Shown: positions 33,634 through 53,108, numbered from the stretch's first letter. The stretch is DNA of 64,000 bases from Trueperaceae bacterium (GCA_034521815.1 JAXHLW010000013.1:928001-992000), one strand, 5' to 3'. Notes: a model not told the origin generated them from the sequence alone. Made by a program: numbers and translations.

Positions 33634-33827
33634 TCGATGGGCCCGTCCACTAGGTGACGGTTGCTGCATCAATTCGCCGTCCCGGCTCGAACGACACGGG
33701 ATCGTCCTGCCCTCGCGGCGTCTCGGCGACCGAGGTTCGGAGCGCGCAGGCATTGGTGCCGCTGCCTACCGAAAACTAGGTAGAGCCCGGCCTACACTGC
33801 TGTGGTGTCCAGAGTCGAGGCGCCCGC

Positions 33828-35000
33828 ATGACCGTATCGCTTGCCGCGTCGCTGGCCATCAAGGAGATGGTCCGCAACGTGGCGCGCTTCGCCTCGATCA
33901 GCGCCGTCATCGCGTTGATCACCGTCCTGATCCTGTTCCTCTCCGGCTTGGGCGAGGGCCTGGGGCTGGGCAACCGGCAGTACGTCGGCGGCATCGACGG
34001 CGATCTGCTCGTCTACCAGACCACGGCCGACCTCCAGATCGCCGCGAGCCAGCTGGACCGCTCGGTCGTCGCGTCGGTGCGGCGCGTCGACGGCGTCGCC
34101 GAGGTGGGGGCCATCGCCTTCGCATCGACCGTGATCGAGGGCGCAGGCGGTGAGGACGAGCCGGGGTTGCGCGTGTCGCTGATCGGCGTGGAGCCGGGTC
34201 GCCCGGGCGCGCCCCCTGTGCTGGAGGGACCCGGCTTCGCCTCGTCCAGCGGCAACGAGGTGGTGCTCGGTCGGCAGGCGGCGCTGCGCAGCGGCGCGAC
34301 CGTCGGCGACGTGATCACCGTGCGATCGACGCAGGGTGCGGTGGACGAGCGGTACGACCTCCGCGTCGTCGGCGTCACGTCCGGCCAGCAGTACCAGATC
34401 GCGCCGTCGATCCTGGTCCCGTTGATCGCGTTCGACCGGGTGAAGCCGAAGTCGGACGCCTCGGTGGACCCGTCGCGCCTTCCGTTCAACCTCGTCGCGG
34501 TGCGCACGGTCGCAGGCGCGACGCCCGAGACGGTCGCCGCCCGGATCGAGCAGGAGGTCCGCTCGGTACGGGCGGTGGACCTGGTCACCGCGTACGAGAA
34601 CATTCCCGGGTACGCGGCCCAACAGAGCACGGTCGACACCCAGACGGGCTTCACGCTGGTCATCGGGATCCTCGTGGTCGGCGGGTTCTTTCAGATTCAG
34701 ACGCTTCAGAAGCTGGGCCAGATCGGGATGCTGAAGGCGATCGGGGCGTCCAACCTGATGATCGCCACGGCCACGGTGCTGCAGATCGTGTTCACGAACC
34801 TCGTGGGCGTGAGTCTGGGAGCGCTCGGCACGTTCGCGCTGGCGGCCACGTTTCCCTCGACCGTTCCGATCGTGTTCCAACCCGGCAACGTCGCCGTCGC
34901 GGTCGGCGGACTCCTGGTGATCGGGCCGTTCGGAGGGCTCGTCGCGTTGCGGTCCGCCCTGCGCGTCGAGCCGCTGACCGCCTTGGGGCTCGGCACGTGA
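33828..35000 (+). CDS. ABC transporter permease (FtsX/MacB-like)
   Basis: TM-periplasmic-3TM layout; QKLGQIGMLKAIGAS; VEPLTAL. Confidence 0.88.
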   Translation: MTVSLAASLAIKEMVRNVARFASISAVIALITVLILFLSGLGEGLGLGNRQYVGGIDGDLLVYQTTADLQIAASQLDRSVVASVRRVDGVAEVGAIAFASTVIEGAGGEDEPGLRVSLIGVEPGRPGAPPVLEGPGFASSSGNEVVLGRQAALRSGATVGDVITVRSTQGAVDERYDLRVVGVTSGQQYQIAPSILVPLIAFDRVKPKSDASVDPSRLPFNLVAVRTVAGATPETVAARIEQEVRSVRAVDLVTAYENIPGYAAQQSTVDTQTGFTLVIGILVVGGFFQIQTLQKLGQIGMLKAIGASNLMIATATVLQIVFTNLVGVSLGALGTFALAATFPSTVPIVFQPGNVAVAVGGLLVIGPFGGLVALRSALRVEPLTALGLGT

Positions 35001-35794
35001 CCGTGGCGCGCAAGGCCTACGTCCGGTCGTCTGCGGCTGCTGAGTCCACGGCCGGACCTCCCGCGGTCGCAAGCGGGCCCGCGCTGATCGCGGAGGGACT
35101 GAGCAAGACCTACCCGCTGGGCGAGCAGCTGATCCGCGCCGTCGACGACGTCTCGTTCGAGGTGCAGCCCGGCGAGTTCGTGGCGCTGGTCGGACCGTCC
35201 GGCTCCGGGAAGACGAGCCTCCTGGCCATGCTGGCCGGCCTTCTTCGGCCCACGGAGGGTCGGGTCCGCATCGCCGACCAGGAGATCGCGGAGCTGTCCG
35301 ACCGTCAGCTCACGCGCTTCCGCAGGCGCAACATCGGCTTCACCTTTCAGGCGAACAATCTCCTGCCCTACCTCACGGTGCTCGAGAACGTCACGCTGAT
35401 GCTGTCCCTGAACGGCCGCACGAATCCGGGAAGCGTGGCATGGGCGAAGGACCTCTTGGAGCAGCTGGGGCTGGCGGACCGGCTCCGCAGCCTGCCGTCC
35501 CAGCTTTCGGGGGGCCAGAAGCAGCGCGTGTCGATCGCGCGGGCCCTGATCCACCGTCCCGCCGTGGTGCTGGCCGACGAGCCGACGGCCAGCCTGGACA
35601 CCGAGCGCGCGCACCAGGTGGTCGAAACGTTCGCGTCGCTGATTCATGACGACCGGCGGGCGGGGATCATGGTGACGCACGACCTCAGGATGTGCCGTCA
35701 CGTCGACCGGGTCGTTCAGATGCGCGACGGCCTGCTCGAGCGAATCGTCGACGACCCTGAAGACATCCGTGCGCTTTCCGAGGGCGGCCCGTGA
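34997..35794 (+). CDS. ABC transporter ATP-binding protein (LolD/MacB-like)
   Basis: [26 protein letters not shown]. Confidence 0.92.
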
Positions 35795-35870
35795 CGCCCT
35801 ACCTTCGGGACCTCGCCGTGCGGCGGACGATCCCCACTCGACCACGGTCGCTGTGCGACCAGGAGGCATC

Positions 35871-37064
35871 GTGCGTCTGATCCGACCGCTTCTGCTGATC
35901 TCCTCGGAGCGGGCGCCGTGGTGGGCGCCGCCTTCGTCCTTCGCGCCCAAGGGGTCCTGACGTTCGGAACGCCGGAGGCCACGGTCGTCCGGGACTCACG
36001 AACGCCAGGCATCGACGACCGACCTGCGAACCCGCCTAGCGGCGCATCGGACGATTCTCCCGCGACGTCGGAATCCGGCTCCCCGAGCGACGATACGGCA
36101 GCGACGCGACCCGTCGCGGGCGTGCCGTCCTCCGCCGAAGCGGAGGTGCGTCCGCTCCGCAGCTCCGACCTGGCGTTCTCGGGAACGGGCGTCCTGGTCG
36201 AGCGGTTCGTAGCTGAAGGCGACGACGTCGTGGCCGGCGATCCGCTGCTGCGGCTCGACGACGAGCGGGAGCGTGCGCGCCTCCGCGAAGCCGACGCCGC
36301 CTTGGCTGCGGCCGCCGCTCGCCTGCAGGCGGCTCAAGCCGGCGAGCGAGCGGCCGAGCGTCAGATCGCCGTCGTCCGACGCCGCTGTCCGCGTGGCCGA
36401 GGCGCAACGCGACGCGGCCCAGGCCGCGCTGCGCCTGACGGCGACGCAGGCCGAAGCGACCGTCGCCGAAGCGGAGGCGCGCATGCGCCAGGCGGAGGCG
36501 GGTGTCGTGCAGGCCGAGGCGAACCGCGAGGCCGCACGCGCGGCCCTGGTGCAGGCCGCGGCGAACACGTCGCTGGCCGCGGCGCAGCGCGATCAGGCCG
36601 AGGCGGTCCAGGCAACGGCGTCCCTGGCCGTCCGCGAGAGGACGCTCACCGCTCCGTTCGACGGCCGGGTGGTCTCGATCGGCGCCGAGGTCGGCGAGAC
36701 GCTGGGCGGTCCCGGAGGAAGCCCACCGGGCGGACCGGAGCAGGAGAGCTCGGGTGCCGGCACCGCGGTACGGCTGGCCGACCTGAGCGGCTGGCGTGTC
36801 GAGACGACGAACCTCACCGAGCTCCAGGTGGTCGGCGTGCGTCCCGGCGACGAGGTCACGGTCGAGGTCGACGCCCTACCGGACCTGAGCCTCGGGGGCG
36901 TCGTCGAGCGGATCGGCTACCGGGCGGAGCCCGTGCGTGGAGAGGTGACCTACGTGACGACGGTCCGGTTGCTCGACGCGTCGCTAACGGATGCAGCGCG
37001 CGCGGCGCTTCGCCCCGGTATGACCGCCGTGGTACGCGGGCTGGTGCGCGGGCTGGTGCGCTGA
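35871..37064 (+). CDS. HlyD-type membrane fusion protein, frameshifted
   Basis: V.EGDDVVAGDPLLRLD, coiled coil, LTAPFDGRV, LRPGMTA. Confidence 0.8.
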
Positions 37065-37155
37065 CCAACCCCTGATCTGGTCGATGCGGCGTTCCTCCCT
37101 ATCAGGAGCGCCGGCCGCGGCACCGGGCGGGTCCAACGTCCCGAGCCTGACCGGT

Positions 37156-37180
37156 TATCGTAGATCGTAGATGAACGATG
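37156..37180 (+). promoter_or_regulatory. putative ArsR operator overlapping -10 and start codon
   Basis: ATCGT-N6-ACGAT inverted repeat (37164-37179) with TATCGT -10; same in copy B near 50021-50045. Confidence 0.55.
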
Positions 37181-37566
37181 AACGCTCTCTCACAACATCC
37201 GCTACGACCCATCGTGCCCCTGCGCGTGGGCTCGCAACCTCGGGACGGACGGCCACGGCGGAGGAGGCGCGCCTCGCCAGCCTAGCCAAGGCACTCGGTC
37301 ACCCCGCCCGGGTGCGCATCCTTCGCCTCCTCCTCGCAACCGACACGTGCATGTGCGGCGCCATCTGCGACGTCGTCTCACTCGCGCAGTCGACCGTGTC
37401 GCAGCACCTGAAGGTGCTGAAGCAGGCGGGTCTCATCGCGGGTGAGATCGACGGCCCCCGGGTGTGCTACTCACCCAACCGAGCCGCTCTGGCCGAGTTG
37501 ACGGCGCTGCTCTACCACCTCGAACCCGACGCCAACCCTGCCCGCAAGGAGCCCACCGATGCCTGA
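37171..37566 (+). CDS. arsR: ArsR/SmtB arsenite-responsive regulator
   Basis: [40 protein letters not shown]. Confidence 0.9.
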
Positions 37567-38662
37567 CACCGCCCCCAAGCGCCTCTCGTTCCTGGACCGC
37601 TACCTCACGCTGTGGATCTTCGTCGCGATGGGGCTGGGCGTCCTGATCGGGACCGTCATCCCCGGATTCGGCCGCGTCCTCGACTCGATGAGCGTCGGCG
37701 CGACGAACATCCCCATCGCCATCGGCCTCATCCTGATGATGTACCCGCCGCTCGCCAAGGTGCGCTACGGGAAGCTGCCGCAGGTGTTTCGCAACGTCCG
37801 CATCCTGGTCCTCTCGCTGGTGCAGAACTGGTTGATCGGGCCGTTCCTGATGTTCTTCCTGGCGATCACGTTCCTGCGCGACTACCCGGAGTACATGATC
37901 GGCCTCATCCTGATCGGCCTCGCCCGTTGCATCGCCATGGTGCTGGTGTGGAACCAGCTCGCCGAAGGCGACAACGACTACGCCGCCGGCCTCGTCGCCT
38001 TCAACAGCGTCTTCCAGGTGATCTTCTTCAGCGTCTACGCCTACGTGTTCATCACCGTGCTGCCGCCGCTGTTCGGGCTGCAGGGGAGCATCGTCGAGAT
38101 CACGATCGGCGAGATCGCGCTCGCGGTCTTCATCTACCTGGGCGTGCCGTTCATCGCCGGGATCCTCAGCCGCGTGCTGCTGATCCCCGCCAAGGGCCAG
38201 GACTGGTACGACCGGGTCTTCGTGCCACGCATCAGCCCGATCACGCTCTCGGCGCTGCTCTTCACCATCGTGATGATGTTCGGCCTCAAGGGCGGCACGA
38301 TCGTGCAGATCCCGCTCGACGTCGTGCGCATCGCGGTGCCGCTGGTGCTCTACTTCGTCATCATGTTCACCGTCAGCTTCTTCATGGGGCGCGCGTTCGG
38401 CGCCGATTACCCACAGACCACGACGCTCGCGTTCACCGCGTCCGGGAACAACTTCGAGCTGGCGCTCGCGGTCGCGATCTCGGTCTTCGGTCTCAGCTCA
38501 GGCGTCGCGTTCGCAGCCGTCATCGGGCCGCTGGTCGAGGTGCCCGTGCTGATCTCGCTCGTGTGGGTGGCGCTCTACTTCCGCAAGCGCTTCTTCCCGG
38601 CAGCCCACGCCGAGGCCACCGCGGCGGCCGCAGGCCAGCCGGCCGGCGGTAGCGCGCGATGA
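37559..38662 (+). CDS. acr3: ACR3 arsenite efflux transporter
   Basis: [42 protein letters not shown]. Confidence 0.96.
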
Positions 38663-38883
38663 ACGAGCCCGCCTCGGAATCCGCGGGAGCGCCGAGCCAG
38701 CGCACGTTCTTCAGCCTGCGCTTCTTCGAGTTGCGCGAGGTCGCGGCCATGGTCGAACGTGGCGCGGAGCTGCCGATCGTGCTGGTCGGCGACGCCGTCG
38801 CCAACCGAGGCGGCAAGTTATCGGAGGCGCGCATCGCGGAGTCACTCGAAGCCGCGGGCGCCCTTGGAACGGGAGAACGATGA
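38659..38883 (+). CDS. small hypothetical protein, thioredoxin/ArsD C-terminal-like
   Basis: ATGA overlaps at both ends; ELPIVLVGD. Confidence 0.5.
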
Positions 38884-39281
38884 CGATGGCGATGACGCAA
38901 ACCGTCGAGTCCGGTGCCGCCGTGCGCGAACGAGCGCGCGCCTTGGCCCAGACGATCGAGCAGAGCGAGGCGTTCCGTGCCTACAAGGTGGCCGAGGCGG
39001 CGCTCGACGCGGACGCGGCGCTGGGCTCGACGCTCGCCGCGCTCCAGGCGCGAGACCAAGAGCTCGGGCAGTCCCAAGCCTGGGGCGGCGCCGACCCCAC
39101 GGAGGTGCGCGCCGTGCAGCAGGAGTGGCAGGACCTCGCGACGAACCCCATCCTCGTCGCGCACGCAGCGGCCCGCGAGAACCTGATCGCGCTGTTCGGC
39201 GAAGTCGCAGTGGGGATCACCGAGGGCACGGGCATCGACTTCGGCTCGGCCTGCGCGCCGGCCGGCGGGTGTTGCGGATGA
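38880..39281 (+). CDS. YlbF/YmcA (Ric) family protein with C-terminal CxxxxxCCG
   Basis: [18 protein letters not shown]...[23 protein letters not shown]. Confidence 0.78.
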   Translation: MTMAMTQTVESGAAVRERARALAQTIEQSEAFRAYKVAEAALDADAALGSTLAALQARDQELGQSQAWGGADPTEVRAVQQEWQDLATNPILVAHAAARENLIALFGEVAVGITEGTGIDFGSACAPAGGCCG

Positions 39282-39682
39282 GCACGTCGGGAACCACGAT
39301 CGACCCCAGCCGCAACGGGCTCGCGGCCGTCCCGGAACGCCTTCGGGAACTGGTCCAGGCCCTGCGGGTCGCCCCCGCCATCGCGCGGTTCCGGGCGGCG
39401 GAAGAACGCTTCCGTGGCGACGAGGACGTGCGTGCCCTGCAGGCGCGCGTGCGTGCGTGCCACGAGCAACTGCAACGTGCGGAACGCGCGAACCGCCATG
39501 ACCCCAGGCTCTTCCAGGACGCGCGCGAAGCCCAGGCGCTGCTGCAAGGGCATCCAGCGGTCGCCGAGTTCGTCGCGTCACGCCAAGACGCGATGGATCT
39601 CCTGCGCGACGTGAACGAAGCGATGACCGAGGTGCTCGGCGTGGACCTCGGCGGAAGCGTGCGTCGTGCCTGTGCCTGCTGA
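39278..39682 (+). CDS. second YlbF/YmcA family protein ending in CxC
   Basis: [36 protein letters not shown]...ACAC. Confidence 0.75.
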   Translation: MSTSGTTIDPSRNGLAAVPERLRELVQALRVAPAIARFRAAEERFRGDEDVRALQARVRACHEQLQRAERANRHDPRLFQDAREAQALLQGHPAVAEFVASRQDAMDLLRDVNEAMTEVLGVDLGGSVRRACAC

Positions 39683-40445
39683 CGCGCGCAGGCGCCTCCT
39701 CGCGGTGTTCGCGCACCCGGACGATGAGACCTTCGTCGCCGGCGGCACGCTCGCCCGCTACGCCGCGACCGGCAACGAGGTGACCGTCGTGTGCGCGACG
39801 TCCGGCGAACTCGGCAGGCGCGGCGAGTACGTCGACCTTCCCCGCCCGGCGTTCGCCGACGTGCGTCGCGGCGAGCTCGAGGCCGCGTGCGCCGCGCTCG
39901 GCACGCGCCCACCACGGTTCCTCGGTTGCACCGACAAGGGGTTGGACCACGATTGCCAGGAAGCGGCCACCGCCGAGGTAGCGGACATCATCGAAGAGCT
40001 GCGACCCGACGTCGTCGTCACGTTCGGCCCCGACGGCGTCTCGGGGCACGCCGACCACCTGGCCATCGGCCAGATCGTGACCGCGGCCTTCGCCAGGGCG
40101 GGCAGGTCGTTGCCCGCGCCTGCTCCCGGCACGGAGCACGCCCACCCGGTCGCGCTCTACTACGTCCTGCGATCCGAGGCCGCGCCAGCTTGCTGCGCGG
40201 CCCGCGATGGCGCGCCGCCGCCGCCCCCCACCACCACGTCGATCGACGTCCGGGGCTACGGCGATCGCAAGCTCGCCGCCGTGCGCTGCCATCGCAGCCA
40301 GCACCACCTGCAACCCGCGACGCCGGAGCGTGAGGCGGCCATCCTGAGCGCTCCGGAGGCCTTCCACCGTGCGGTACCGGCGTGGACGGGAGGCTCGCTC
40401 GAGACGCACCTCTTCGGGCTCACGGAGGCCGCGACGACGGATTGA
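39666..40445 (+). CDS. PIG-L/LmbE family deacetylase (MshB/BshB/Mca-like)
   Basis: [32 protein letters not shown]. Confidence 0.9.
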   Translation: MPVPADARRRLLAVFAHPDDETFVAGGTLARYAATGNEVTVVCATSGELGRRGEYVDLPRPAFADVRRGELEAACAALGTRPPRFLGCTDKGLDHDCQEAATAEVADIIEELRPDVVVTFGPDGVSGHADHLAIGQIVTAAFARAGRSLPAPAPGTEHAHPVALYYVLRSEAAPACCAARDGAPPPPPTTTSIDVRGYGDRKLAAVRCHRSQHHLQPATPEREAAILSAPEAFHRAVPAWTGGSLETHLFGLTEAATTD

Positions 40446-40498
40446 GCCCGGCCCGCGGCCCACGAGCGCAGCGCCCGGGACCTCCGTCGGCCCGGCGC

Positions 40499-40747
40499 TT
40501 ACGCCGCCGCGCTCGCCTCCTTGATCCACCCGGCGATCTCCGCCGCAGGCGCGATCCGGCCGCTCGCCTTGACCCGGTCGTCGATCACGATCGCGGGCGT
40601 CGACATGATGCCGTACTGAAGGACGGCTCGAAAGTCCTCGACCTTCACGAGGTCGACCTGGACACCGGTCTGCTCCACGGCGGACATCGCCTCGAGGTAG
40701 AGCTGCTGGCAGCGTCTACAGCCTGGGCCCAGGATCTTGATCGTCAT
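40499..40747 (-). CDS. small redox-active disulfide (thioredoxin-family, MTH895-like) protein
   Basis: IKILGPGCRRC, YGIMSTPAIVID, SGRI. Confidence 0.88.
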   Translation of the reverse strand: MTIKILGPGCRRCQQLYLEAMSAVEQTGVQVDLVKVEDFRAVLQYGIMSTPAIVIDDRVKASGRIAPAAEIAGWIKEASAAA

Positions 40748-41073
40748 CACGACGCTGGGGCCGCCAGCCAGGCGAGCGCCTCGGCCGCCGTGTCCTGCAC
40801 GGTCGCACTCTTCATGAGCCGGGCCACCAGGATCGCCTCGACGATCTCCTCGTCGCTGACGCCGGCCTTCCGAGCCTGCTTCGTCCACATGAGCGTGCAG
40901 GTCGACGACTGCAGGGCGGCGGCGACGCCGATGCCGATGAGCAGCTTCTGCGTCAGCGGCAACGCCTGCAACGCCGGGTTCTCGAGGGTGGCGGCGCGGT
41001 GCTCCATGTAGGTGCGTGCGCCTTCGGGGGATGCGGTGCGAAGGATGTCCATGGGGGCGGCGGATGGGTTCAC
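40747..41073 (-). CDS. carboxymuconolactone decarboxylase/AhpD-like protein
   Basis: KLLIGIGVAAA..S.TC, ARKAGVSDEEIVEAI. Confidence 0.8.
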   Translation of the reverse strand: MNPSAAPMDILRTASPEGARTYMEHRAATLENPALQALPLTQKLLIGIGVAAALQSSTCTLMWTKQARKAGVSDEEIVEAILVARLMKSATVQDTAAEALAWLAAPAS

Positions 41074-41309
41074 GGTGTCTCCTCTTCGAAATGGGGTGTG
41101 AGAGGTGCGCGGAGAACGCCGTCACGAAGGGCGTGAGCAAGGACCCGCAACACCGCGGCACGCCTTGCGACGTGGTCGTCGGCACGGCTCAGGCGCGGCG
41201 CACCTCCGGACGCCACCGCCCACGATGTCGTGAAGCTGGCACATCACCAAGGGCCATTCGTCCGTGGCCCGGCGCGGCTCCGGCGAAGACCGTGCGACTT
41301 ATATGTTGG

Positions 41310-42447
<1,138 letters not shown>

Positions 42448-42470
42448 CCCTTGACAATCAACACGGTTGC

Positions 42471-43814
42471 TCAGTCGAACGCCGCCGCCGCCGGGACGCG
42501 CGCCGGCGTGTTGCACGGCATCCCCTCCTCGAACAGGGCACGCTCGTCCTCCGGCAGGCGTGCGCGCGCGAGGTCGCGAATGCCGTTCACGCCGATGAAG
42601 AACTCGCGCATCATCACGACCAGCAGGTAGCGCCCCGTCTCGGTCAGCTCCAGCGCCTCCGCGTCGTCGCGCGAGAACGCGCCGGCGGCCTTCAGGAACA
42701 GGTACTCCGCCCACAGCGCACGCTCGACCGGGGCGCCGTTGCGCTTGGCGAACGCGCTCTTGTCCAGTCGGAGCCCGAACAGGTCCATCATCAGCCGGTA
42801 GCGCCGCCGATCGGCGCGACTCAGCGGCATGTGGGCGTCCACGCTGAGACGGCCCTCGTCGATCGCGCCGGCGTAGGCCCGCAGGCTGAACGGGTTCGCG
42901 TACAGCTCGTCGTTCAGGTAGCTGAACGAGCCGCTGCCCACGCCGACGTACTCGTCGTGGTCCACGATGTACTCGTCGATCATCGTCGACGCCTCGCGCG
43001 AGAACGCCCAGGCCGACGTCGGCTTGAACGTGTCCGACAAGGCCTCCGACAACAGCCGGTACTGGCGCTCCTCCTGTTGGTAGTCGACCGTGCCCAGCGC
43101 TCGCTCGAGCGGCTTCTCGACCGACGGCGACACCATCAGCGGGTAGTACGTCACCTGATCCGCGCCGGTCGCCTTGAGCGACTCGATGTCGCGCTTCAGG
43201 ACGTCGTCGGTCAGCGAGGGAAGGTTGAAGATCATGTCGACGTTGAGCGTGGTGAGCCGGCCCGCGGCCAGCTCGACCCCGGCCAGGATCTCCTCCGCCG
43301 TTCCGTACGCGTCCCGGCGCTTCATCTGACGCAGCAGCTCGTCGTCCAGGCTCTGCACCCCGACCGAGAGCCGGTCCACGCGTCCGTCGAGCACGTCGAG
43401 AACCTCGTGGGTCAGGTGGTTCGGGTTCGTCTCGGTCGACACCTCGCCCACGCCGAACAGCTCGCGGGCCAGGTCGATCGTCGCGACGAGCTCCTCCGGG
43501 ATCACGGTCGGCGTGCCGCCCCCGATGTACATCGAGGAGAAGTCGTAGCCCAGGTCGGCCACCATCCGCATCTCCTCACGAAGCGCGTGGAAGTAGCGGG
43601 TCGCCGCGTCCTGCTGGAACGGAAAGCGGTTGAACGAGCAGTACGGGCAGAGCCGATGGCAGAACGGGACGTGCGCGTACAGCAGATAGCCACCGCGATG
43701 GGTCGGCTTCGGGAGATCGCCCGGCTTGTGGGGCTCCAAGCGAAGCTGCTGCGACCGTAGGCCACGAAGGCGGCGGGTGAGGAGTCGCTCCGCGATCATC
43801 GAGCCGAGGTCCAC
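42471..43814 (-). CDS. HemN-like radical SAM protein
   Basis: YAHVPFCHRLCPYCSF, YIGGGTP, RLSVGVQS, YVGVGSGSFS. Confidence 0.9.
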   Translation of the reverse strand: MDLGSMIAERLLTRRLRGLRSQQLRLEPHKPGDLPKPTHRGGYLLYAHVPFCHRLCPYCSFNRFPFQQDAATRYFHALREEMRMVADLGYDFSSMYIGGGTPTVIPEELVATIDLARELFGVGEVSTETNPNHLTHEVLDVLDGRVDRLSVGVQSLDDELLRQMKRRDAYGTAEEILAGVELAAGRLTTLNVDMIFNLPSLTDDVLKRDIESLKATGADQVTYYPLMVSPSVEKPLERALGTVDYQQEERQYRLLSEALSDTFKPTSAWAFSREASTMIDEYIVDHDEYVGVGSGSFSYLNDELYANPFSLRAYAGAIDEGRLSVDAHMPLSRADRRRYRLMMDLFGLRLDKSAFAKRNGAPVERALWAEYLFLKAAGAFSRDDAEALELTETGRYLLVVMMREFFIGVNGIRDLARARLPEDERALFEEGMPCNTPARVPAAAAFD

Positions 43815-43972
43815 GCCCGACGGCGAGCTGGCGTCCTACGTCGTTGAATGCGCATGCGACAAGGTATCGCATCGAGGCGAACCGACGGGCAGGACGAACG
43901 ACCCGGCTCCCGTCGGGAATCCGACCGACGTGCGCCGGACCCGGTGATGCACTGCGCCGTGGAGGTGCACGG

Positions 43973-44329
43973 ATGCACAAGATCGCGATCGTCGTCCTGG
44001 CCGACACCGAAACGCACGGAGACCTGGGCCGCGCCGTCAACGCCCTGGAGGTGGCCAAGGAGTTCGCCGAGGCGGGCGACGAGGTCGCCCTCGTGTTCGA
44101 CGGAGCGGGCACGAAGTGGGTGCCGGTCCTCGACGACCCGTCCCACAAGCGGCACGCGCTGTGGACGTCGGTGAAGGACCACGTGGCGGGCGCGTGCGCG
44201 TTCTGCTCCACGGCGTTCGGCGCGAAGGACGGCGTCGAGGCGGCCGGCGTCGCGCTGCTGAGCGAGTTCGAGGAGCACCCCAGCCTGCGCGGCTACGTCG
44301 AGAAGGGCTACCGGATCCTCACCTTCTGA
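43973..44329 (+). CDS. DsrE-family protein
   Basis: GRAVNAL, VALVFDGAG, GACAFCSTAFG, GYRILTF. Confidence 0.8.
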   Translation: MHKIAIVVLADTETHGDLGRAVNALEVAKEFAEAGDEVALVFDGAGTKWVPVLDDPSHKRHALWTSVKDHVAGACAFCSTAFGAKDGVEAAGVALLSEFEEHPSLRGYVEKGYRILTF

Positions 44330-44413
44330 CCGTCAGAACGTGCAGGCCCCGTGCGTCTGCGACGCGCTCTTGGGCGCGAGGAGACGCCAGAAGGCACGAG
44401 GAGGCACGACCCG

Positions 44414-45190
44414 ATGCATCTATTCCAAACCGCGATGGGGGTGCACGTCCCCGACGTCGGGGCAGATCGCATGCGCGATCTCGACCGGGTGGCCGTGGAC
44501 GAGTTCGGCATCGATCTGCTGCAGATGATGGAGAACGCCGGCCGCGCCCTCGCCGCGACGGTGCGCGGCATGCTGCACACGGGCGGCGGCGTCACCGTGC
44601 TGGCCGGCAGCGGCGGCAACGGCGGGGGCGGGCTAGCAGCGGCACGCCACCTGCACGGTCGGGAGGCCCAGGTGCGCGTGGTCCTCGCGCGGCCCGAGGA
44701 CCGCCTCTCCGCGGCGACGGCGCACCAGCTCCGCACCCTGCGTGCGATCGGCGTTCCCATCGAGGGACCGACGCACGCGGACCGCTGGATCGGCGAGGCC
44801 GAGGTCGCGATCGACGCCCTCCTGGGCTACGGCGCGACGGGGCCCGCCGAAGGGACCATCGCCGACCTGATCCGCACGCTGAACCGGCGTGCACGCCGGA
44901 TCGTGTCGCTCGATCTCCCCTCGGGGCTCCACGCCACGCACGGCACCGTCGGCGGCCCGATCGTCCGGCCCGTCCGAACCCTCACGCTGGCGCTCCCCAA
45001 GACCGGCCTGGCCGACCCGGCGGCCGACCTCGCCGAGCTGTGGCTGGCCGACATCGGCATTCCGCCCGAGGCGTTCCACCGCGTCGGGCTGACGTCGTAC
45101 CGGACGCCGTTCCGAACGGAGGACCGGGTTCCGCTTCGCTGCACCGGCACCTGGTCGACGCGCTGCCGGGACGTCGTGTTCCCTGGCTGA
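44414..45190 (+). CDS. nnrE: stand-alone NAD(P)H-hydrate epimerase (YjeF_N)
   Basis: MMENAGR, GSGGNGGGG, IDALLGYG, SLDLPSG, T.ALPKTGL, LADIGIP. Confidence 0.85.
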   Translation: MHLFQTAMGVHVPDVGADRMRDLDRVAVDEFGIDLLQMMENAGRALAATVRGMLHTGGGVTVLAGSGGNGGGGLAAARHLHGREAQVRVVLARPEDRLSAATAHQLRTLRAIGVPIEGPTHADRWIGEAEVAIDALLGYGATGPAEGTIADLIRTLNRRARRIVSLDLPSGLHATHGTVGGPIVRPVRTLTLALPKTGLADPAADLAELWLADIGIPPEAFHRVGLTSYRTPFRTEDRVPLRCTGTWSTRCRDVVFPG

Positions 45191-45253
45191 GACGTCCGAT
45201 GGCGCGCCGCGAGGACGCCCGGATCGACGACGCCCGGATCGGAGCGTCGCCGA

Positions 45254-46030
45254 TCAGGGAAGCTCGTCGCGCCAGGCGGCCGCGTCCGAGGTCGTGGCGA
45301 TCCCCAGCAAGCCCTGATCGTGCCGACCGTGCTCGGTGATCAGGACCGCCTCGAGCCGGGGGGCGTCGACGAACGCCTCGACGACCTCCAGCGCAGGGAC
45401 GTCCCGCGCGACGAAGATCCAGTCACGCCGGTCCTTCTGGACGGCCAGAACGTCGGCGACGGTCCGTCCTGCGATCGCGCCCAGCGGCCCGTCGGACGGA
45501 TCGCGAGGCGGCTCCGAGGGCGCATCGAACGTCGCCGCGAGCCAGCGGACGATCCCGGCCGCCGTGAGCAGCCCCTCGAACGCGCCGGCGTCGTACACGG
45601 GAAACTGGGTGATCGAGCGGTCGCGGATCGTCGCCAGCACGTCGGCCAGACGGTCGCTCACGTCCACGGCGACCACGTCGCGCCGAAACGCCTCGTCGGC
45701 ACGGACCGGCGTGACGAGGCGATCGTGGATCGCGCGGATCTCGTTCAGAACGTCCTGACTTGGAATCGACAGGTACGCGAAGCGCTCGTAGCGGTCGTGC
45801 ACGATCACGTTGCGCAGGTCGGAGAACGCCAGCATCGCTTCGAGGTCGCCGCGCCACCAGCGGTGCCGGTCCGCGAAGCGGTGCGCCGCGGTCTTGAACC
45901 CTTCGTGGTCGGCTACGCCGGTGCGCCGCTTCAGCTCGCGCTCGATCCGGTTGAACGCGGTCAGGAACTCCTCGGCCTCGTGCGTGCCGGGGGGCGGACC
46001 TTCAGGGCGATCGTCAGCTGGAGCGGTCAT
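45254..46030 (-). CDS. HEPN-like + tandem CBS domain protein
   Basis: FLTAFNRIE...LRNVIVH (Rx4H); ITQFPVYD and LLGIAT CBS motifs. Confidence 0.75.
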   Translation of the reverse strand: MTAPADDRPEGPPPGTHEAEEFLTAFNRIERELKRRTGVADHEGFKTAAHRFADRHRWWRGDLEAMLAFSDLRNVIVHDRYERFAYLSIPSQDVLNEIRAIHDRLVTPVRADEAFRRDVVAVDVSDRLADVLATIRDRSITQFPVYDAGAFEGLLTAAGIVRWLAATFDAPSEPPRDPSDGPLGAIAGRTVADVLAVQKDRRDWIFVARDVPALEVVEAFVDAPRLEAVLITEHGRHDQGLLGIATTSDAAAWRDELP

Positions 46031-46552
46031 GGCCGACTGTACCCAGCGCCCCTGCCGCCACGCCCTGCCCCCCGTGCGGCACGACCGCACCGACGTCCGC
46101 GAGGGGGACGGTCTCCTCCGCCAGGAAGCGCCTGAGGAACACGCGCGTGGCGCCCACCGCGGTCGCCTCGGCCGCGACGACGTGGGCCCGGCGCACGATC
46201 AGCGCGTTGTCCAGCAGGGTGGGAAGGCGACGCCGGACGTTCGTCTCGAGCCGGTCCAGCAGCGCGGCGGGGGCGCCGGCGAGGCCCCCGCCGATCACCA
46301 GCAGCTCCGGCTGCAGCAGGTGGACGAACGCGGCGACCTGGTCGCCGAGCACCCCAGCATCCGTGTGATCACGCGTTCTGCCGGCTGCTCGCCCTGGGCG
46401 GCGCGGAGGAGGATCTCGTCGAGCCGCCGCCGCACCTGCGCCGGGGTTCGCGGGGAAGGCGGGCGCTGGGAGGAGGGTCCCCGCACGGACTCCGGCCCCG
46501 GCGTGCCCGCGGCTTCGCGTTCGTAGCTGGCGACGAGTCCGTGCATGCGGAG
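46014..46552 (-). pseudogene. 5'-truncated ROK regulator (end of copy A)
   Basis: matches the 3' part of 57505-58777; homology stops at 46552. Confidence 0.85.
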
Positions 46553-46686
46553 GAAGTGAACGGCTCCGCGAAAGCGCGTCGTACGCGCGTGGATCGTCTC
46601 AGTCGGGGACGTTGGCGCCGCTGCCTACCGAAATCTAGGTAGCGTCCGGCCTACACCGCCGCGGTGTCCGAGTCGCAGGCGCCGTC

Positions 46687-47861
46687 ATCGACCGTATCGG
46701 CTTGCCGCGTCGCTGGCCATCAAGGAGATGGTCCGCAACGTAGCGCGCTTCGCCTCGATCAGCGCCGTGATCGCGTTGATCACCGTCCTGATCCTGTTCC
46801 TCTCCGGCTTGGGCGAGGGTCTGGGGCTGGGCAACCGGCAGTACGTCGGCGGCATCGACGGCGACCTGCTCGTCTACCAGACCACGGCCGACCTCCAGAT
46901 CGCCGCGAGCCAGCTGGACCGCTCGGTCGTCGCGTCGGTGCGGCGCGTGGACGGCGTCGCCGAGGTGGGCGCCATCGCCTTCGCATCGACCGTGATCGAG
47001 GGCGCAGGCGGCGAGGACGAGCCAGGGCTTGCGCGTGTCGCTGATCGGCGTGGAGCCGGGTCGCCGGGCGCGCCCCCTGTGCTGGAGGGACCCGGCTTCG
47101 CCTCGTCCAGCGGCAACGAGGTGGTGCTCGGTCGGCAGGCGGCGCTGCGCAGCGGCGCGACCGTCGGCGACGTGATCACCGTGCGATCGACGCAGGGTGC
47201 GGTGGACGAGCGGTACGACCTCCGCGTCGTCGGCGTCACGTCCGGCCAGCAGTACCAGATCGCGCCGTCGATCCTGGTCCCGTTGATCGCGTTCGACCGC
47301 GTCAAGCCGAAGTCGGACGCCTCGGTGGACCCGTCGCGCCTCCCGTTCAACCTCGTCGCGGTACGCACGGTCGCAGGCGCGACGCCCGAGACGGTCGCCG
47401 CCCGGATCGAGCAGGAGGTCCGATCGGTACGGGCGGTGGACCTGGTCACCGCGTACGAGAACATTCCCGGCTACGCGGCCCAACAGAGCACGGTCGACAC
47501 CCAGACGGGCTTCACGCTGGTCATCGGGATCCTCGTGGTCGGCGGGTTCTTTCAGATTCAGACGCTGCAGAAGCTGGGCCAGATCGGGATGCTGAAGGCG
47601 ATCGGAGCGTCCAACCTGATGGTCGCCACGGCGACGGTGCTCCAGATCGTGTTCACGAACCTCGTGGGCGTGAGCCTGGGAGCGCTGGGCACGTTCGCGC
47701 TGGCGGCCACGTTCCCCTCGACCGTCCCGATCGTGTTCCAACCCGGCAACGTCGCCGTCGCGGTCGGCGGACTCCTGGTGATCGGGCCGTTCGGAGGCCT
47801 CGTCGCCTTGCGGTCCGCCCTGCGCGTCGAGCCGCTGACCGCCTTGGGGCTCGGCACGTGA
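46687..47861 (+). CDS. ABC permease FtsX-like (copy B; start region has indels)
   Basis: near-identical to 33828-35000. Confidence 0.8.
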
Positions 47862-48655
47862 CCGTGGCGCGCAAGGCCTACGGTCGGTCGTCTGCGGGCG
47901 CCAAGTCCACGGCCGGACCGCCCGCGGTCGCAAGCGGGCCCGCGCTGATCGCGGAGGGACTGAGCAAGACCTACCCGCTGGGCGATCAGCTGATCCGCGC
48001 CGTCGACGACGTCTCGTTCGAGGTGCAGCCCGGCGAGTTCGTGGCGCTGGTCGGACCGTCCGGCTCCGGGAAGACGAGCCTCCTGGCCATGCTGGCCGGC
48101 CTTCTTCGGCCCACGGAGGGTCGGGTCCGCATCGCCGACCAGGAGATCGCCGAGCTGTCCGACCGTCAGCTCACGCGCTTCCGCAGGCGCAACATCGGCT
48201 TCACCTTTCAGGCGAACAATCTCCTGCCCTACCTCACGGTGCTCGAGAACGTCACGCTGATGCTGTCCCTGAACGGTCGTGCGAATCCGGGAAGCGTGGC
48301 ATGGGCGAAGGACCTCTTGGAGCAGCTGGGGCTGGCGGACCGCCTCCGCAGCCTGCCGTCCCAGCTTTCGGGGGGCCAGAAGCAGCGCGTGTCGATCGCG
48401 CGGGCCCTGATCCACCGTCCCGCCGTGGCGCTGGCCGACGAGCCGACGGCCAGCCTGGACACCGAGCGCGCGCACCAGGTGGTCGAAACGTTCGCGTCGC
48501 TGATTCATGACGACCGGCGGGCGGGGATCATGGTGACGCACGACCTCAGGATGTGCCGTCACGTCGACCGGGTCGTTCAGATGCGCGACGGCGTGCTCGA
48601 GCGCATCGTCGACGACCCTGAAGACATCCGTGCGCTTTCCGAGGGCGGCCCGTGA
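47858..48655 (+). CDS. ABC ATP-binding protein (copy B)
   Basis: near-identical to 34997-35794. Confidence 0.9.
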
Positions 48656-48731
48656 CGCCCTACCTTCGGGACCTCGCCGCGCGGCGGACGATCCCCACTC
48701 GACCACGGTCGCTGTGCGACCAGGAGGCATC

Positions 48732-49928
48732 GTGCGTCTGATCCGACCGCTTCTGCTGATTCTCCTCGGAGCGGGCGCCGTGGTGGGCGCCGCCTTCGTC
48801 CTTCGCGCCCAAGGGGTCCTGACGTTCGGAACGCCGGACGACACGATCGTCCAGGACTCACGAACGCCAGGCATCGACGACCGACCTGCGAACCCGCCTA
48901 GCGGCGCAGCGGACGCGTCTCCCACGACGTCGGAATCCGCCTCCCCGAGCGACGAGTCGGCTGAGCCGCAACCCGTCGCGGGCGTGCCGTCCTCCGCCGA
49001 AGCGGAGGTGCGTCCGCTTCGCAGCTCCGACCTGGCGTTCTCGGGGAACGGGCGTCCTGGTCGAGCGGTTCGTAGCTGAAGGCGACGACGTCGTGGCCGG
49101 CGATCCCCTGCTGCGGCTCGACGACGAGCGGGAGCGTGCGCGCCTCCGCGAAGCCGACGCCGCCTTGGCTGCGGCCGCCGCTCGCCTGCAGGCGGCCCAA
49201 GCCGGCGAGCGAGCGGCCGAGCGTCAGATCGCTGTCGCCGACGCCGCCGTTCGCGTGGCCGAGGCTCAACGTGACGCGGCCCAGGCCGCGCTGCGGCTGA
49301 CGGCGACGCAGGCCGAAGCGACCGTCGCCGAAGCGGAAGCGCGCATGCGCCAGGCGGAGGCGGGTGTCGTGCAGGCCGAGGCGAACCGCGAGGCCGCACG
49401 CGCGGCCCTGGCGCAGGCCGCGGCGAACACGTCGCTGGCCGCGGCGCAGCGCGATCAGGCCGAGGCGGTCCAGGCAACGGCGTCCCTGGCCGTCCGCGAG
49501 AGGACGCTCACCGCTCCGTTCGACGGCCGGGTGGTCTCGATCGGCGCCGAGGTCGGCGAGACGCTGGGCGGTCCCGGAGGAAGCCCACCGGGCGGACCGG
49601 AGCAGGAGAGCTCGGGTGCCGGCACCGCGGTACGGCTGGCCGACCTGAGCGGCTGGCGCGTCGAGACGACGAACCTCGACCGAGCTCCAGGTGGTCGGCG
49701 TGCAGTCCCGGCGACGAGGTCACGGTCGAGATCGACGCCCTACCGGGGTTGAGTATCGACGGCGTCGTCGAGCGCATCGGCTACCGGGCGGAGCCCGTGC
49801 GTGGAGAGGTGACCTACCTGACGACGGTCCGGTTGCTCGACGCGTCGCTCACGGATGCAGCGCGCGCGGCGCTTCGCCCCGGCATGACCGCCGTGGTGCG
49901 CGGGCTGGTGCGCGGGCTGGTGCGCTGA
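48732..49928 (+). CDS. HlyD-type membrane fusion protein (copy B), frameshifted
   Basis: paralog of 35871-37064. Confidence 0.78.
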
Positions 49929-50035
49929 CCATCCCCTGAAATGGTCGATGCGGCGTTCCTCCCTATCAGGAGCGCCGGCCGCGGCACCGGGCGGGTCCGA
50001 TCGTCCCGAGCCTGACCGGTTATCGTAGATCGTAG

Positions 50036-50431
50036 ATGAACGATGAACGCTCTCTCACGACATCCGCTACGACCCATCGTGCCCCTGCGCGTGGGCTCGC
50101 AACCTCGGGACGGACGGCCACGGCGGAGGAGGCGCGCCTCGCCAGCCTAGCCAAGGCACTCGGTCACCCCGCCCGGGTGCGCATCCTTCGCCTCCTCCTC
50201 GCAACCGACACGTGCATGTGCGGTGCCATCTGCGACGTCGTCTCACTCGCGCAGTCGACCGTGTCGCAGCACCTGAAGGTGCTGAAGCAGGCGGGTCTCA
50301 TCGCGGGTGAGATCGACGGCCCCCGGGTGTGCTACTCACCCAACCGAGCCGCTCTGGCCGAACTGACGGCGCTGCTCTACCACCTCGAACCCGACGCCAC
50401 CCCTGCCCGCAAGGAGCCCACCGATGCCTGA
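50036..50431 (+). CDS. arsR: ArsR regulator (copy B)
   Basis: 1 aa different from copy A. Confidence 0.9.
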
Positions 50432-51527
50432 CACCGCCCCCAAGCGCCTCTCGTTCCTGGACCGCTACCTCACGCTGTGGATCTTCGTCGCGATGGGGCT
50501 GGGCGTCCTGATCGGGACCGTCGTCCCCGGATTCGGCCGCGCCCTCGACTCGATGAGCGTCGGCGCGACGAACATCCCCATCGCCATCGGCCTCATCCTG
50601 ATGATGTACCCGCCGCTCGCCAAGGTGCGCTACGGGAAGCTGCCGCAGGTGTTTCGCAACGTCCGCATCCTGGTCCTCTCGCTGGTGCAGAACTGGTTGA
50701 TCGGGCCGTTCCTGATGTTCTTCCTGGCGATCACGTTCCTGCGCGACTACCCGGAGTACATGATCGGCCTCATCCTGATCGGCCTCGCCCGTTGCATCGC
50801 CATGGTGCTGGTGTGGAACCAGCTCGCCGAAGGCGACAACGACTACGCCGCCGGCCTCGTCGCCTTCAACAGCGTCTTCCAGGTGATCTTCTTCAGCGTC
50901 TACGCCTACGTGTTCATCACCGTGCTGCCGCCGCTGTTCGGGCTGCAGGGGAGCATCGTCGAGATCACGATCGGCGAGATCGCGCTCGCGGTCTTCATCT
51001 ACCTGGGCGTGCCGTTCATCGCCGGGATCCTCAGCCGCGTGCTGCTGATCCCCGCCAAGGGCCAGGACTGGTACGACCGGGTCTTCGTGCCACGCATCAG
51101 CCCGATCACGCTCTCGGCGCTGCTCTTCACCATCGTGATGATGTTCGGCCTCAAGGGCGGCACGATCGTGCAGATCCCGCTCGACGTCGTGCGCATCGCG
51201 GTGCCGCTTGGTGCTCTACTTCGTCATCATGTTCACCGTCAGCTTCTTCATGGGGCGCGCGTTCGGCGCCGATTACCCACAGACCACGACGCTCGCGTTC
51301 ACCGCGTCCGGGAACAACTTCGAGCTGGCGCTCGCCGTCGCGATCTCGGTCTTCGGTCTCAGCTCAGGCGTCGCGTTCGCAGCCGTCATCGGGCCGCTGG
51401 TCGAGGTGCCCGTGCTGATCTCGCTCGTGTGGGTGGCGCTCTACTTCCGCAAGCGCTTCTTCCCGGCAGCCCACGCCGAGGCCACCGCGGCGGCCGCAGG
51501 CCAGCCGGCCGGCGGTAGCGCGCGATC
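50424..51527 (+). CDS. acr3: ACR3 transporter (copy B), frameshift near 51208, stop region corrupted
   Basis: near-identical to copy A. Confidence 0.85.
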
Positions 51528-52293
51528 GAGCCCGGACCGCGGAGCGCCGACCTCGAGTCCGGTGCCGCCGTGCGCGACGAGCGCGCGCCTTGGCCCAGGC
51601 GATCGAGCAGAGCGAGGCGTTCCGTGCTACAAGGTGGCCGAGGCGGCGCTCGACGCAGACGCGGCGCTGGGCTCGACGCTCGCCGCGCTCCAGGCGCGAC
51701 CAAGGCTAGGCATCCAGCCTGGGCGGCGCCACCCCACGGAGGTGCGCGCCCTGCAGGGTGGCAGGACCTCGCGACGAACCCCATCCTCGTCGCGCACGCA
51801 GCGGCCCGCGAGACCTGATCGCACTGTTCGGCGAAGCGCATGGGGGTCAGCGAGGGCACGGGCATCGACTTCGGATCGGCCTGCGCGCCGGCTGGCGGGT
51901 GTTGCGGATGAGCACGTCGGGACCACGATCGACCCCAGCCGCAACGGCTCGCGGCCCCGAACGCCTTCGGAACTGGTCCAGGCCTGCGGTCGCCGCCATC
52001 GCGCGGTTCCGGGCGGCGGAGACGCTTCCGTGGCGACGAGGACGTGCGTGCCCTGCAGGCGCGCGTGCGTGCGTGCCACGAGCAACTGCAACGTGCGGAA
52101 CGCGCGAACCGCCATGACCCGACTCTTCCAGGACGCGCATGAAGCCCGGCGGCTGCAAGGGCATCCAGCGGTCGCCGAGTTCGTCGCGTCACGCCAAGAC
52201 GCGATGGATCTCGTGCGCGACGTGAACGAAGCGATGACCGAGGTGCTCGGCGTGGACCTCGGAGGAAGCGTGCGTCGTGCCTGTGCCTGCTGA
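51528..52293 (+). pseudogene. degraded or error-rich copies of the small ORF and two YlbF-like genes
   Basis: about 190-bp deletion plus many small deletions versus 38659-39682; Cys tails retained. Confidence 0.7.
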
Positions 52294-53055
52294 CGCGCGC
52301 AGGCGCCTCCTCGCGGTGTTCGCGCACCCGGACGATGAGACCTTCGTCGCCGGCGGCACGCTCGCCCGCTACGCCGCGACCGGCACCGAGGTAACCGTCG
52401 TGTGCGCGACGTCCGGCGAACTCGGCCGGCGCGGCGAGTACGGCGACCTTCCCCGCCCGGCGTTCGCCGACGTGCGTCGCCGCGAGCTCGAGGCCGCGTG
52501 CGCCGCGCTCGGCACGCGCCCACCAAGGTTCCTCGGTTGCACCGACAAGGGGTTGGACCACGATTGCCAGGAAGCGGCCACCGCCGAGGTGGCGGACATC
52601 ATCGAAGAGCTGCGACCCGACGTCGTCGTCACGTTCGGCCCCGACGGCGTCTCGGGGCACGCCGACCACCTGGCCATCGGCCAGATCGTGACCGCGGCCT
52701 TCTCCAAGGCGGGCAGGTCGTTGCCCGCGCCTGCTCCCGGCACGGAGCACGCCCACCCGGTCGCGCTCTACTACGTTCTGCGATCCGAGGCCGCGCCAGC
52801 ATGCTGCGCGGCTCGCGATGGCGCGCCGCCGCCGCCCCCCACCACCACGTCGATCGACGTTCGTGGCTACGGCGATCGCAAGCTCGCCGCCGTGCGCTGC
52901 CATCGCAGCCAGCACCACCTGCAACCCGCGACGCCGGAGCGTGAGGCAGCCATCCTGAGCGCTCCGGAGGCCTTCCACCGTGCGCTACCGGCGTGGACGG
53001 GAGGCTCGCTCAGACGCACCTCTTCGGGCTCACGGAGGCCGCGACGACGGATTGA
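52277..53055 (+). CDS. PIG-L deacetylase (copy B), frameshift near 3' end
   Basis: near-identical to 39666-40445. Confidence 0.85.
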
Positions 53056-53108
53056 GCCCGGCCCGCGGCCCACGAGCGCAGCGCCCGGGACCTCCGTCGG
53101 CCCGGCGC

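Follow-up and report, generated by a model that had tools for sequence, protein, structure and literature searches.

We analysed 64,000 nucleotides (nt) of the genome of a Trueperaceae bacterium (GCA_034521815.1, JAXHLW010000013.1:928001-992000). This whole stretch is called the window, and all positions are given in its coordinates. Our subject is an arsenic resistance (ars) operon of the window that encodes two cysteine-tailed proteins of the YlbF family, here named YlbF1 and YlbF2. The operon lies on the plus strand and begins with arsR (37171..37566), encoding an ArsR/SmtB metalloregulator (PF01022, 45.3 bits; NF033788, 71.8 bits for a cut-off of 55), and acr3 (37559..38662), encoding an arsenite efflux permease that matches the full TIGR00832 model (443.4 bits, cut-off 282.8) and PF01758 (189 bits). 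They are followed by orf74 (38659..38883), which encodes a small protein of 74 residues devoid of cysteine, by the genes of YlbF1 (38880..39281) and YlbF2 (39278..39682), and by a gene for a Zn hydrolase of the PIG-L/LmbE family (39666..40445; PF02585, 120.5 bits, cut-off 28.2). The six genes form one overlapping operon, the successive overlaps computed from the coordinates being 8, 4, 4, 4 and 17 nt. The GC content at third codon positions is 0.80–0.96 across every gene of the operon (0.81 in orf74). In the translation of arsR, a CxCxxxC motif (CMCGAIC) precedes the helix-turn-helix, a position which we take to be that of the As(III) site. A scan for promoters and terminators gave no promoter-like site and one terminator-like site within acr3, which is not above what shuffled sequence gives, and a repeat search upstream of arsR returned short repeats only.

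An earlier reading of this DNA, hereafter the original prediction, had described this run of arsR, acr3, a 74-residue open reading frame (ORF), two cysteine-tailed YlbF-like proteins and a PIG-L enzyme. Every gene was found where it had been placed, and the family assignments are firm for all but orf74, which matches no family. It had also pointed to the lack of arsC, and indeed there is none inside the operon. In the genome, which is 83.5% complete, PF03960 (arsC) has no match and the single match of PF01451 (LMWP phosphatase) lies far from the operon; ArsA (PF02374) has no match either.

YlbF1 and YlbF2 are paralogs with 25% identity. Both match the Com_YlbF profile (PF06133) over positions 2–102 of 105, with 51.0 and 52.5 bits respectively for a threshold of 23.9, which settles in the affirmative the profile search that had been suggested for this domain. 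YlbF1 ends with the tail C125-x5-C131-C132-G, and YlbF2 with RRACAC. We searched 1.84 billion representative proteins with YlbF1 using phmmer and obtained 85 matches at E ≤ 1e-3, 17 of them at E ≤ 1e-10. Most are 125–137 residues long and align through their final residue. A vicinal CC pair is present inside the last 12 residues of 69 of the 85 matches (ending CC in 39, CCG in 24 and CCS in 4, with the pair slightly further in for 2); seven others end in a single cysteine, and nine, several of them visibly truncated, have none of these endings. A third cysteine lies 4–8 residues upstream of the pair in 26 of the 85. By these counts, the cysteine tails of the family exceed chance, and in our alignments of YlbF1 the CC pair of the tail is invariant. 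The YlbF2 alignment gives a similar picture, since 24 of its 26 sequences end in cysteine (CAC in the window, C or CC in the orthologs from the loci described below) and two database rows end in CC and CCG. Among the YlbF2 ORFs at those loci, 35 of 37 are cysteine-terminal, one ends in CCS and one has a broken frame.

The nearest named families are the NCBIfam halo-CC-star proteins HcsL (NF041416) and HcsS (NF041415), whose name itself denotes the terminal CC. YlbF1 and YlbF2 of the window and of one other locus (L011) match HcsL over its full length, and the YlbF1 tails match the C-terminal part of HcsS. Yet, the scores are far below the cut-offs: 39–48 bits for HcsL (cut-off 140; in the window, YlbF1 has 45.6 and YlbF2 38.9 bits) and 20–32 bits for HcsS (cut-off 55), so the window proteins are not members of HcsL. 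We found no paper on the halo-CC-star family name. A sequence search of the PDB with YlbF1 gave nothing meaningful, and a word-based homolog search gave three proteins only, the closest metagenome proteins being 73% and 61% identical.

To see the genes in other genomes, we searched collections of genomes and metagenomes for the peptide AC[AS]P[AS]GGCC, i.e., for the YlbF1 tail and not for ars content. This gave 5 and 35 confirmed loci, denoted below by L and a number, which fall into 25 lineages at 90% identity. Searches with tblastn, using the window proteins and proteins annotated at the loci, showed that the order orf74-YlbF1-YlbF2 is kept in 35 of the 40 loci. The five loci without an orf74 match are two that start inside or just before YlbF1 (L023, L033), two with a 187-nt gap (L032, L034), and L047. 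YlbF2 follows YlbF1 in 38 loci; the exceptions are a contig ending just past YlbF1 and, again, L047. The canonical gene order is arsR, acr3, usp, arsD, arsA, a Zn-ribbon gene, orf74, YlbF1, YlbF2 and a CoaC-like flavoprotein gene, after which come variable genes: DUF59/FeS_assembly_P, PIG-L, a CMAS-type methyltransferase and LMWP arsC. Counted by lineage, and as lower bounds given that many contigs are 1–3 kb long, arsA and the Zn-ribbon gene each occur in 23 of 25, orf74 in 22, arsD in 15, the flavoprotein gene in 14, arsR in 12, acr3 in 9, CMAS and LMWPc in 8 each, and PIG-L in 4. In 24 of the 25 lineages the cassette has one or more of the ars genes arsA, arsD, arsR and acr3 next to it, the exception being a flankless contig of 1.5 kb. 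The position of the cassette is fixed, between the arsA/acr3 genes and the arsC/methyltransferase genes, although the proteins of different lineages are only 30–60% identical.

A broad YlbF profile applied to 401 genomes of the phylum of one carrier identified four further genomes (four of the 400 others) with more divergent YlbF genes. All four genes sit among arsR, acr3, arsD, arsA or LMWP-arsC. PIG-L and a Trx_3 gene accompany the YlbF gene in one of these clusters. Zn-ribbon genes occur in three of them; the tail of the encoded protein could be read in two cases and shows a vicinal CC near the end in both. The named carriers of the cassette are an Anaeromyxobacter isolate and metagenome-assembled genomes (MAGs) labelled Acidobacteria, Thermoanaerobaculia and Ca. 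Methylomirabilis, in addition to the phylum of the window. The trio orf74-YlbF1-YlbF2 is therefore a genuine conserved module, linked to ars genes in several unrelated bacterial groups. The original prediction had suggested a check for co-occurrence of the YlbF genes with acr3, arsR and PIG-L. The linkage of YlbF homologs to ars genes holds in the 24 lineages and the four divergent genomes, with acr3 and PIG-L seen beside the trio in at least 9 and at least 4 of the 25 lineages, respectively.

Some ars islands with the cassette (L024, L027, L035, L028, L037, L039, L043) contain other genes, encoding B12-binding radical SAM, radical SAM/SPASM and MogA-like MoCF_biosynth proteins, as well as CMAS-type methyltransferases. 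One long frame at L009:268-2505 has an ArsM-like methyltransferase domain and, further on, Acr3-like matches, and may be a fusion or a frame error of the MAG. Another locus (L012:11602-12546) has selD (TIGR00476, 335.8 bits) and an aldehyde:ferredoxin oxidoreductase gene after an Acr3-like gene.

The cysteine tail of YlbF1 recurs on other proteins of ars islands. The Zn-ribbon protein of the cassette has about 70 residues and two CxxC pairs, scores 38.8 bits on TIGR02605 (cut-off 31.3), and ends in CGPGxGxGCC or in CCG in all of the 34 ORFs recovered. The ArsD proteins adjacent to cassettes are short (101–119 residues from the start of the match), and the approximately 20 ORFs whose ends could be read have no cysteine tail. 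Two ArsD encoded outside cassettes do have one: that of L047:590-960, which ends in SSGCC and includes a stretch equal to the YlbF1 tail of the window over nine residues, and the second ArsD of L010:786-1049 (minus strand), which ends in CSPRSGCCG. For the ArsD of plasmid R773, PMC4562236 describes C-terminal vicinal pairs, Cys112-113 and Cys119-120, with a proposed role in metalloid sensing. It cites Li, Chen and Rosen for the prediction of a regulatory role of these pairs, made in a paper whose title mentions metalloid sensing, and gives Cys12, 13 and 18 as essential for the chaperone activity. The cassette proteins thus carry, as far as their sequences tell, an ArsD-type cysteine tail on other scaffolds. 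They share with ArsD (PF06953) a terminal or near-terminal C-x-P-x-G-(G)-C-C(-G) grammar and the location in ars operons beside arsA. They differ in scaffold, with a YlbF helical bundle or a Zn ribbon in place of the thioredoxin fold, and none of them has the N-terminal site made of Cys12/13/18 (PMC4562236).

YlbF1 and YlbF2 most likely pair as a heterodimer, as had been proposed. This fits the natural fusions of YlbF1 with YlbF2, which make up eight of the 85 phmmer matches, are 260–267 residues long and have the YlbF1-like half first. We used one of these fusions (P0018), and not the window proteins, for an AlphaFold2 (AF2) model, which reached a pLDDT of 85.7 and a pTM of 0.77. With this model, Foldseek matched the two halves locally to RicA of the RicAF complex (6prk_A), YmcA (2pih_A), 2oeq_A and 2iaz_B, all with probability 1.00, target TM of 0.60–0.69 and root-mean-square deviation (rmsd) of 2.6–4.9. 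The matches to 6prk_A, 2pih_A and 2oeq_A had TM of 0.65–0.69 (0.65–0.66 for the first two), rmsd of 2.6–2.9 and E-values of 0.5–1. YlbF1 and YlbF2 are therefore Com_YlbF members by score and, via the model of the fusion, by predicted fold.

The pair has several features in common with RicA/RicF (YmcA/YlbF). The proteins belong to the same Pfam family, above threshold; in the cassette the two YlbF paralogs are encoded side by side and occur as natural fusions, the model of which matches 6prk_A and 2pih_A locally; and C-terminal cysteines are found in the window proteins and are functional in RicAFT (PMC6751060). According to the portion of that article available to us, the dimer of RicA and RicF resembles the RicA homodimer, and cluster 2 of Bacillus subtilis RicAFT, a [4Fe-4S] cluster, is ligated by C134 and C146 of RicF, C141 of RicA and C167 of RicT, with the two RicF residues near the C-terminus and the RicA residue at the C-terminus. 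In contrast, the cassette has no linked RicT and its context is that of ars islands. Its tail combines a vicinal CC pair with a linker rich in Gly and Pro, and no named carrier is a firmicute, whereas Ric proteins are described, in the text accessible to us, as widely conserved among firmicutes. The window genome has one PSP1 (RicT-like) gene; it lies some 170 kb away, at C13:757412, and nothing ties it to the operon.

The third member of the trio, orf74, has no match in Pfam (E ≤ 0.1) or NCBIfam. The possibility that it is a spurious ORF was rejected, since orthologs lie directly upstream of YlbF1 in 35 of the 40 loci. A sediment metagenome contig has three indels inside orf74, of 6, 3 and 3 nt, all of which keep the frame. 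These comparisons indicate that it is a real gene. The alignment of its family shows invariant F18, F23, G35, L38, P39, V41, G51 and K53, and no conserved cysteine column, so that the Cys12-Cys13-Cys18 site of ArsD is absent. A profile comparison with hhalign aligned the family weakly with that of ArsD (58% probability, E 1e-4, 65 columns, ArsD columns 39–107), and the AF2 model, whose confidence is low (pLDDT 57.6), places two strands between two helices. As a lead only, orf74 may be a C-terminal part or remnant of an ArsD/thioredoxin-like fold, from which it differs by being wholly free of cysteine.

The last gene of the operon encodes an enzyme with the PIG-L metal motifs AHPDDE and HADH (HxDH) and with an internal CC, which had been noticed earlier and lies at residues 172–173. 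It resembles MshB, BshB and Mca in its Pfam domain and in these motifs, and its best solved relatives are MshB structures (E 4e-17). It nevertheless scores below every NCBIfam equivalog cut-off: 115.4 bits for BshB2 (cut-off 195.25), 103.8 for MshB (224.35), 84.6 for Mca (277.15) and 79.7 for BshB1 (182.5). Hence, by its profile scores, it is classed as a member of the PIG-L superfamily only, and an amidase role of the Mca type is at most a candidate one. It also stands apart from these enzymes in a separate ars-linked subgroup, where Cys43, Cys75 and Cys88 are conserved. Orthologs in the cassettes of L011, L024, L027 and L046, which are from other phyla, are 49–62% identical to it, whereas the PIG-L proteins of 40 relatives are at most 45% identical and their genes have no ars genes within 1.5 kb. 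We considered whether it could be the housekeeping BshB of this bacterium and rejected the idea, as a separate PIG-L gene, 33–40% identical, lies at C13:1633365. The original prediction had counted PIG-L as part of the module. Its presence in four of 25 lineages shows that it is optional, and one metagenome contig, described below, joins acr3 to PIG-L without the trio. It is an accessory Zn hydrolase whose role most likely concerns a low-molecular-weight thiol or its conjugates.

The window operon is, by these comparisons, a reduced or compact version of the cassette, obtained by horizontal transfer either whole or piecemeal. Missing from it are arsA, arsD, the Zn-ribbon gene, CMAS and a linked flavoprotein gene, and orf74 comes immediately after acr3. 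The YlbF1 type did not occur in 60 relatives (10 from the same genus, 26 from the family and 24 from the order), in 363 other genomes of the phylum, or in 300 other genomes of a second phylum sample. The closest relatives are the metagenome proteins with 73% and 61% identity mentioned above and the loci L013–L020 (53–64%). It is this absence from relatives, together with a PIG-L that is nearer to those of cassettes in other phyla, that argues for horizontal acquisition.

Metagenome contigs from four runs of four studies (one salt pan, two sediments and one stromatolite) cover the region. The stromatolite contig (run X7) joins position 38655 to 39620, with 84 letters on its short side and about 98% identity over PIG-L, so that PIG-L follows acr3 and the trio is missing. 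The region is also part of a tandem direct duplication on the plus strand (33753-46552, about 12.8 kb, and 46612-58044, about 11.4 kb; 96–98% identity), which the original prediction had not noted. The repeated unit starts with an ABC transporter gene, includes the ars operon and ends with a CBS gene. In copy B, arsR is intact, acr3 (near 51208) and a radical SAM gene (near 54742) have frameshifts, and orf74 is lost by a 207-nt deletion. Approximately 17 small indels are crowded in YlbF1 and YlbF2 of this copy, vs about one per flanking gene, which reflects either decay or errors of assembly or consensus.

From the gene content, conservation, ars linkage, common tail motif and natural fusions observed in these genomes, we infer a function in metalloid binding and hand-off. 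In our favoured reading, to which we give a probability of roughly 0.45, the YlbF1:YlbF2 pair would bind As(III) or Sb(III) via its tail thiolates, within an accessory cassette of ars islands. We favour this because the identical motif ends ArsD and Zn-ribbon proteins and because the cassette lies between the pump genes and arsC. As(III) would release ArsR, so that the pair would be made together with Acr3. The pair, whose flexible C-termini carry C-x5-CC in YlbF1 and a terminal C or CC in YlbF2, would then take up As(III) or Sb(III) on three tail thiolates, which would lower the free metalloid, and would pass or present it to the efflux machinery. The latter would be Acr3 in the window, and ArsD/ArsA in the full cassette, which adds the Zn-ribbon protein with the same tail. 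The cassette would accordingly consist of ArsD-like cysteine-tailed metalloid proteins on new scaffolds. A partnership with Acr3 specifically, as originally predicted, is not supported, since the usual partners are ArsD/ArsA and the same-tailed Zn-ribbon protein.

Several observations weigh against metalloid binding and hand-off by the YlbF pair. In ArsD it is the C-terminal pairs that are tied to regulation, in the available text of PMC4562236, and Cys12/13/18 that are tied to chaperoning, so the tail may sense metalloids and not hand them off. In the homologous RicAFT (PMC6751060), a [4Fe-4S] cluster has C-terminal cysteines of both RicF and RicA among its ligands. The three cysteines of YlbF1 and the one of YlbF2 make exactly four ligands in many cassettes, and genes of Fe-S assembly (DUF59/FeS_assembly_P, SufC-like ATPase, SufBD core) follow several of them. 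The model of the fusion had no whole-chain Foldseek match at E ≤ 0.001. The constancy of the YlbF1 tail among the loci is circular, as the loci were retrieved by this motif, and many of them are almost identical to one another, coming from a single set of sediment metagenome contigs with similar names. The window version, which lacks ArsA, ArsD and the Zn-ribbon protein, may work differently or in part. Finally, the contig of run X7 suggests that the operon also exists in nature in a form that lacks orf74, YlbF1 and YlbF2.

These observations bear on other explanations. The YlbF1:YlbF2 pair might resemble RicAF and hold a [4Fe-4S] or [2Fe-2S] cluster on its tails, as an arsenite-sensitive cluster carrier, repair factor or sensor that would help where As(III) damages Fe-S proteins, by protecting or replacing them. 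This is the main rival, less probable in our view than metalloid binding, and it accommodates the position of both proteins above the Com_YlbF threshold, the cluster ligands of RicAFT, the 3 + 1 tail cysteines and the presence of a PSP1 gene elsewhere in the genome. Also in its favour, FeS_assembly_P lies downstream of the cassette in three loci (L024, L027, L035), and two others (L028, L037) have genes for a SufC-like ATPase and a SufBD core protein there, yet these five are among 12 loci scanned. Against such a cluster, the same tail is found on Zn-ribbon and ArsD proteins, which are not Fe-S proteins, the PSP1 gene is distant from the operon, and the related genomes searched hold no YlbF gene. 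Furthermore, the ligation of one Fe-S cluster by an adjacent cysteine pair is unusual. The proposed sensing role of the ArsD pairs leads to another alternative, namely that the tails sense As(III) or Sb(III) and the YlbF pair modulates ars expression or activity, either in the way once proposed for ArsD or post-transcriptionally like Ric proteins with RNase Y. The role of Ric proteins in mRNA maturation (as given in the accessible parts of PMC6751060 and PMC10245838) would agree with this. We nonetheless find it improbable, because ArsR is already present, the Pfam search revealed no DNA- or RNA-binding domain in YlbF1, YlbF2 or orf74, and the cassette lies at the distal end of the operon among structural genes. 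It is more doubtful still that the cassette genes have no arsenic role and merely travel with mobile ars islands. They are rare and patchy in the three phylum samples given above, and an IS110 element and the tandem duplication adjoin the window cassette, but hitch-hiking fits poorly with a fixed place inside the operon in such divergent lineages and with a tail motif common to ArsD.

The flavoprotein of the full cassette raises a further alternative. This CoaC-like protein (PF02441) directly follows YlbF2 in its 14 lineages (loci within L008–L046). It scores 205–216 bits on the CoaC half of the CoaBC model (TIGR00521) and 180 bits on stand-alone CoaC (cut-off 261). A full CoaBC (430–445 bits) is encoded elsewhere in three of four carrier genomes, so that the flavoprotein is an additional paralog. 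It comes directly behind three cysteine-terminal proteins, a gene order that suggests a decarboxylation of C-terminal cysteines. The tails would then be substrates of a post-translational modification by the adjacent enzyme, and the window version, which has no such enzyme, would be a relic with little function. In line with this, YlbF1 and YlbF2 are cysteine-terminal wherever the flavoprotein is present and the ends are readable, and the four loci where YlbF1 ends in CCG have no flavoprotein. However, one clade with terminal CC has none in the 1–6.6 kb downstream, three flavoprotein loci have a Zn-ribbon protein ending in CCG, the match to CypD, the peptide-Cys decarboxylase of ribosomally synthesized and post-translationally modified peptide (RiPP) biosynthesis, is of 28 bits only, and the window genes are intact, overlapping and of normal codon bias. 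We thus give this explanation a low probability. As the window has no flavoprotein nearby, the decarboxylation idea bears mainly on the full cassette. Taken further, and as a long shot, the 'CC-star' tails could be enzymatically matured thiol cofactors borne by proteins: the flavoprotein would decarboxylate the C-terminal cysteine of the Zn-ribbon protein, YlbF1 and YlbF2 to cysteamine or enethiol, leaving a claw of two or three thiols that has no carboxylate and would grip As(III) or Sb(III), and in CCG versions such as that of the window the linked PIG-L amidase might instead expose or process the tail. The trio would then be a new class of metalloid carriers for both ArsA- and Acr3-type pumps, and the reaction would be a case of peptidyl-Cys decarboxylation outside RiPP biosynthesis.

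At least 29 lineages (the 25 defined at 90% identity and the four divergent ones) have the trio at a fixed place in their ars clusters, and it is unnamed in the literature that we searched. Although ars operons are among the best-studied metal resistance systems, the trio, the Zn-ribbon protein and the CoaC-like flavoprotein are undescribed there: we found no paper describing the cassette, or linking YlbF-family, FmdB-type or CoaC-like genes to ars operons, in a search that left supplementary gene tables outside. Genome-annotation papers that contain both YlbF and arsenic or Acr3 do not link them in their accessible text, and one of them ties YlbF to biofilm formation. A term search of the available text of a survey of ArsA operons (PMC2963123) gave no mention of zinc, flavoprotein or decarboxylase. 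The genome note of Anaeromyxobacter sp. PSR-1 labels the genes between arsD and arsA just as 'ORFs'. No chaperone for Acr3 turned up in the literature searched, and the window operon indicates that Acr3-only operons can carry part of the cassette set. Depending on whether the tails hold metalloid or an Fe-S cluster, the cassette would extend the As(III) efflux pathway by carriers or connect arsenic stress with the protection of Fe-S proteins.

Two genes on the minus strand are convergent to the ars operon, as the original prediction had it. The first (40499..40747) encodes a thioredoxin-like protein of the MTH895/ArsE family (Thioredoxin_3; TIGR00412, 90.7 bits, cut-off 62), with a CxxC in the GPGCRRC of its translation; similar genes are found in the ars loci L043 and L078. 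The second (40747..41073), co-directional with it, encodes a CMD/AhpD-like protein (PF02627, 45 bits; TIGR04169, 27.8 bits, far under the cut-off of 120). An IS110-family insertion follows on the plus strand (approximately 41350..42465; transposase 41497-42447; PF01548, 82 bits; PF02371, 80.8 bits), between the CMD and radical SAM genes of copy A of the duplication; it had not been noted in the original prediction, and copy B does not have it. In three runs (X1, X2 and X7), each from a different study, contigs bridge position 41297/8 to 42470 and therefore lack the element. Beyond it, the window encodes a HemN-like radical SAM protein (NF006385, 492 bits, cut-off 355) and DsrE-like, YjeF_N and CBS-domain proteins (42471-45190). 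If the IS110 element were absent, the radical SAM gene would join those for CMD and thioredoxin in a single minus-strand unit that faces the ars operon.

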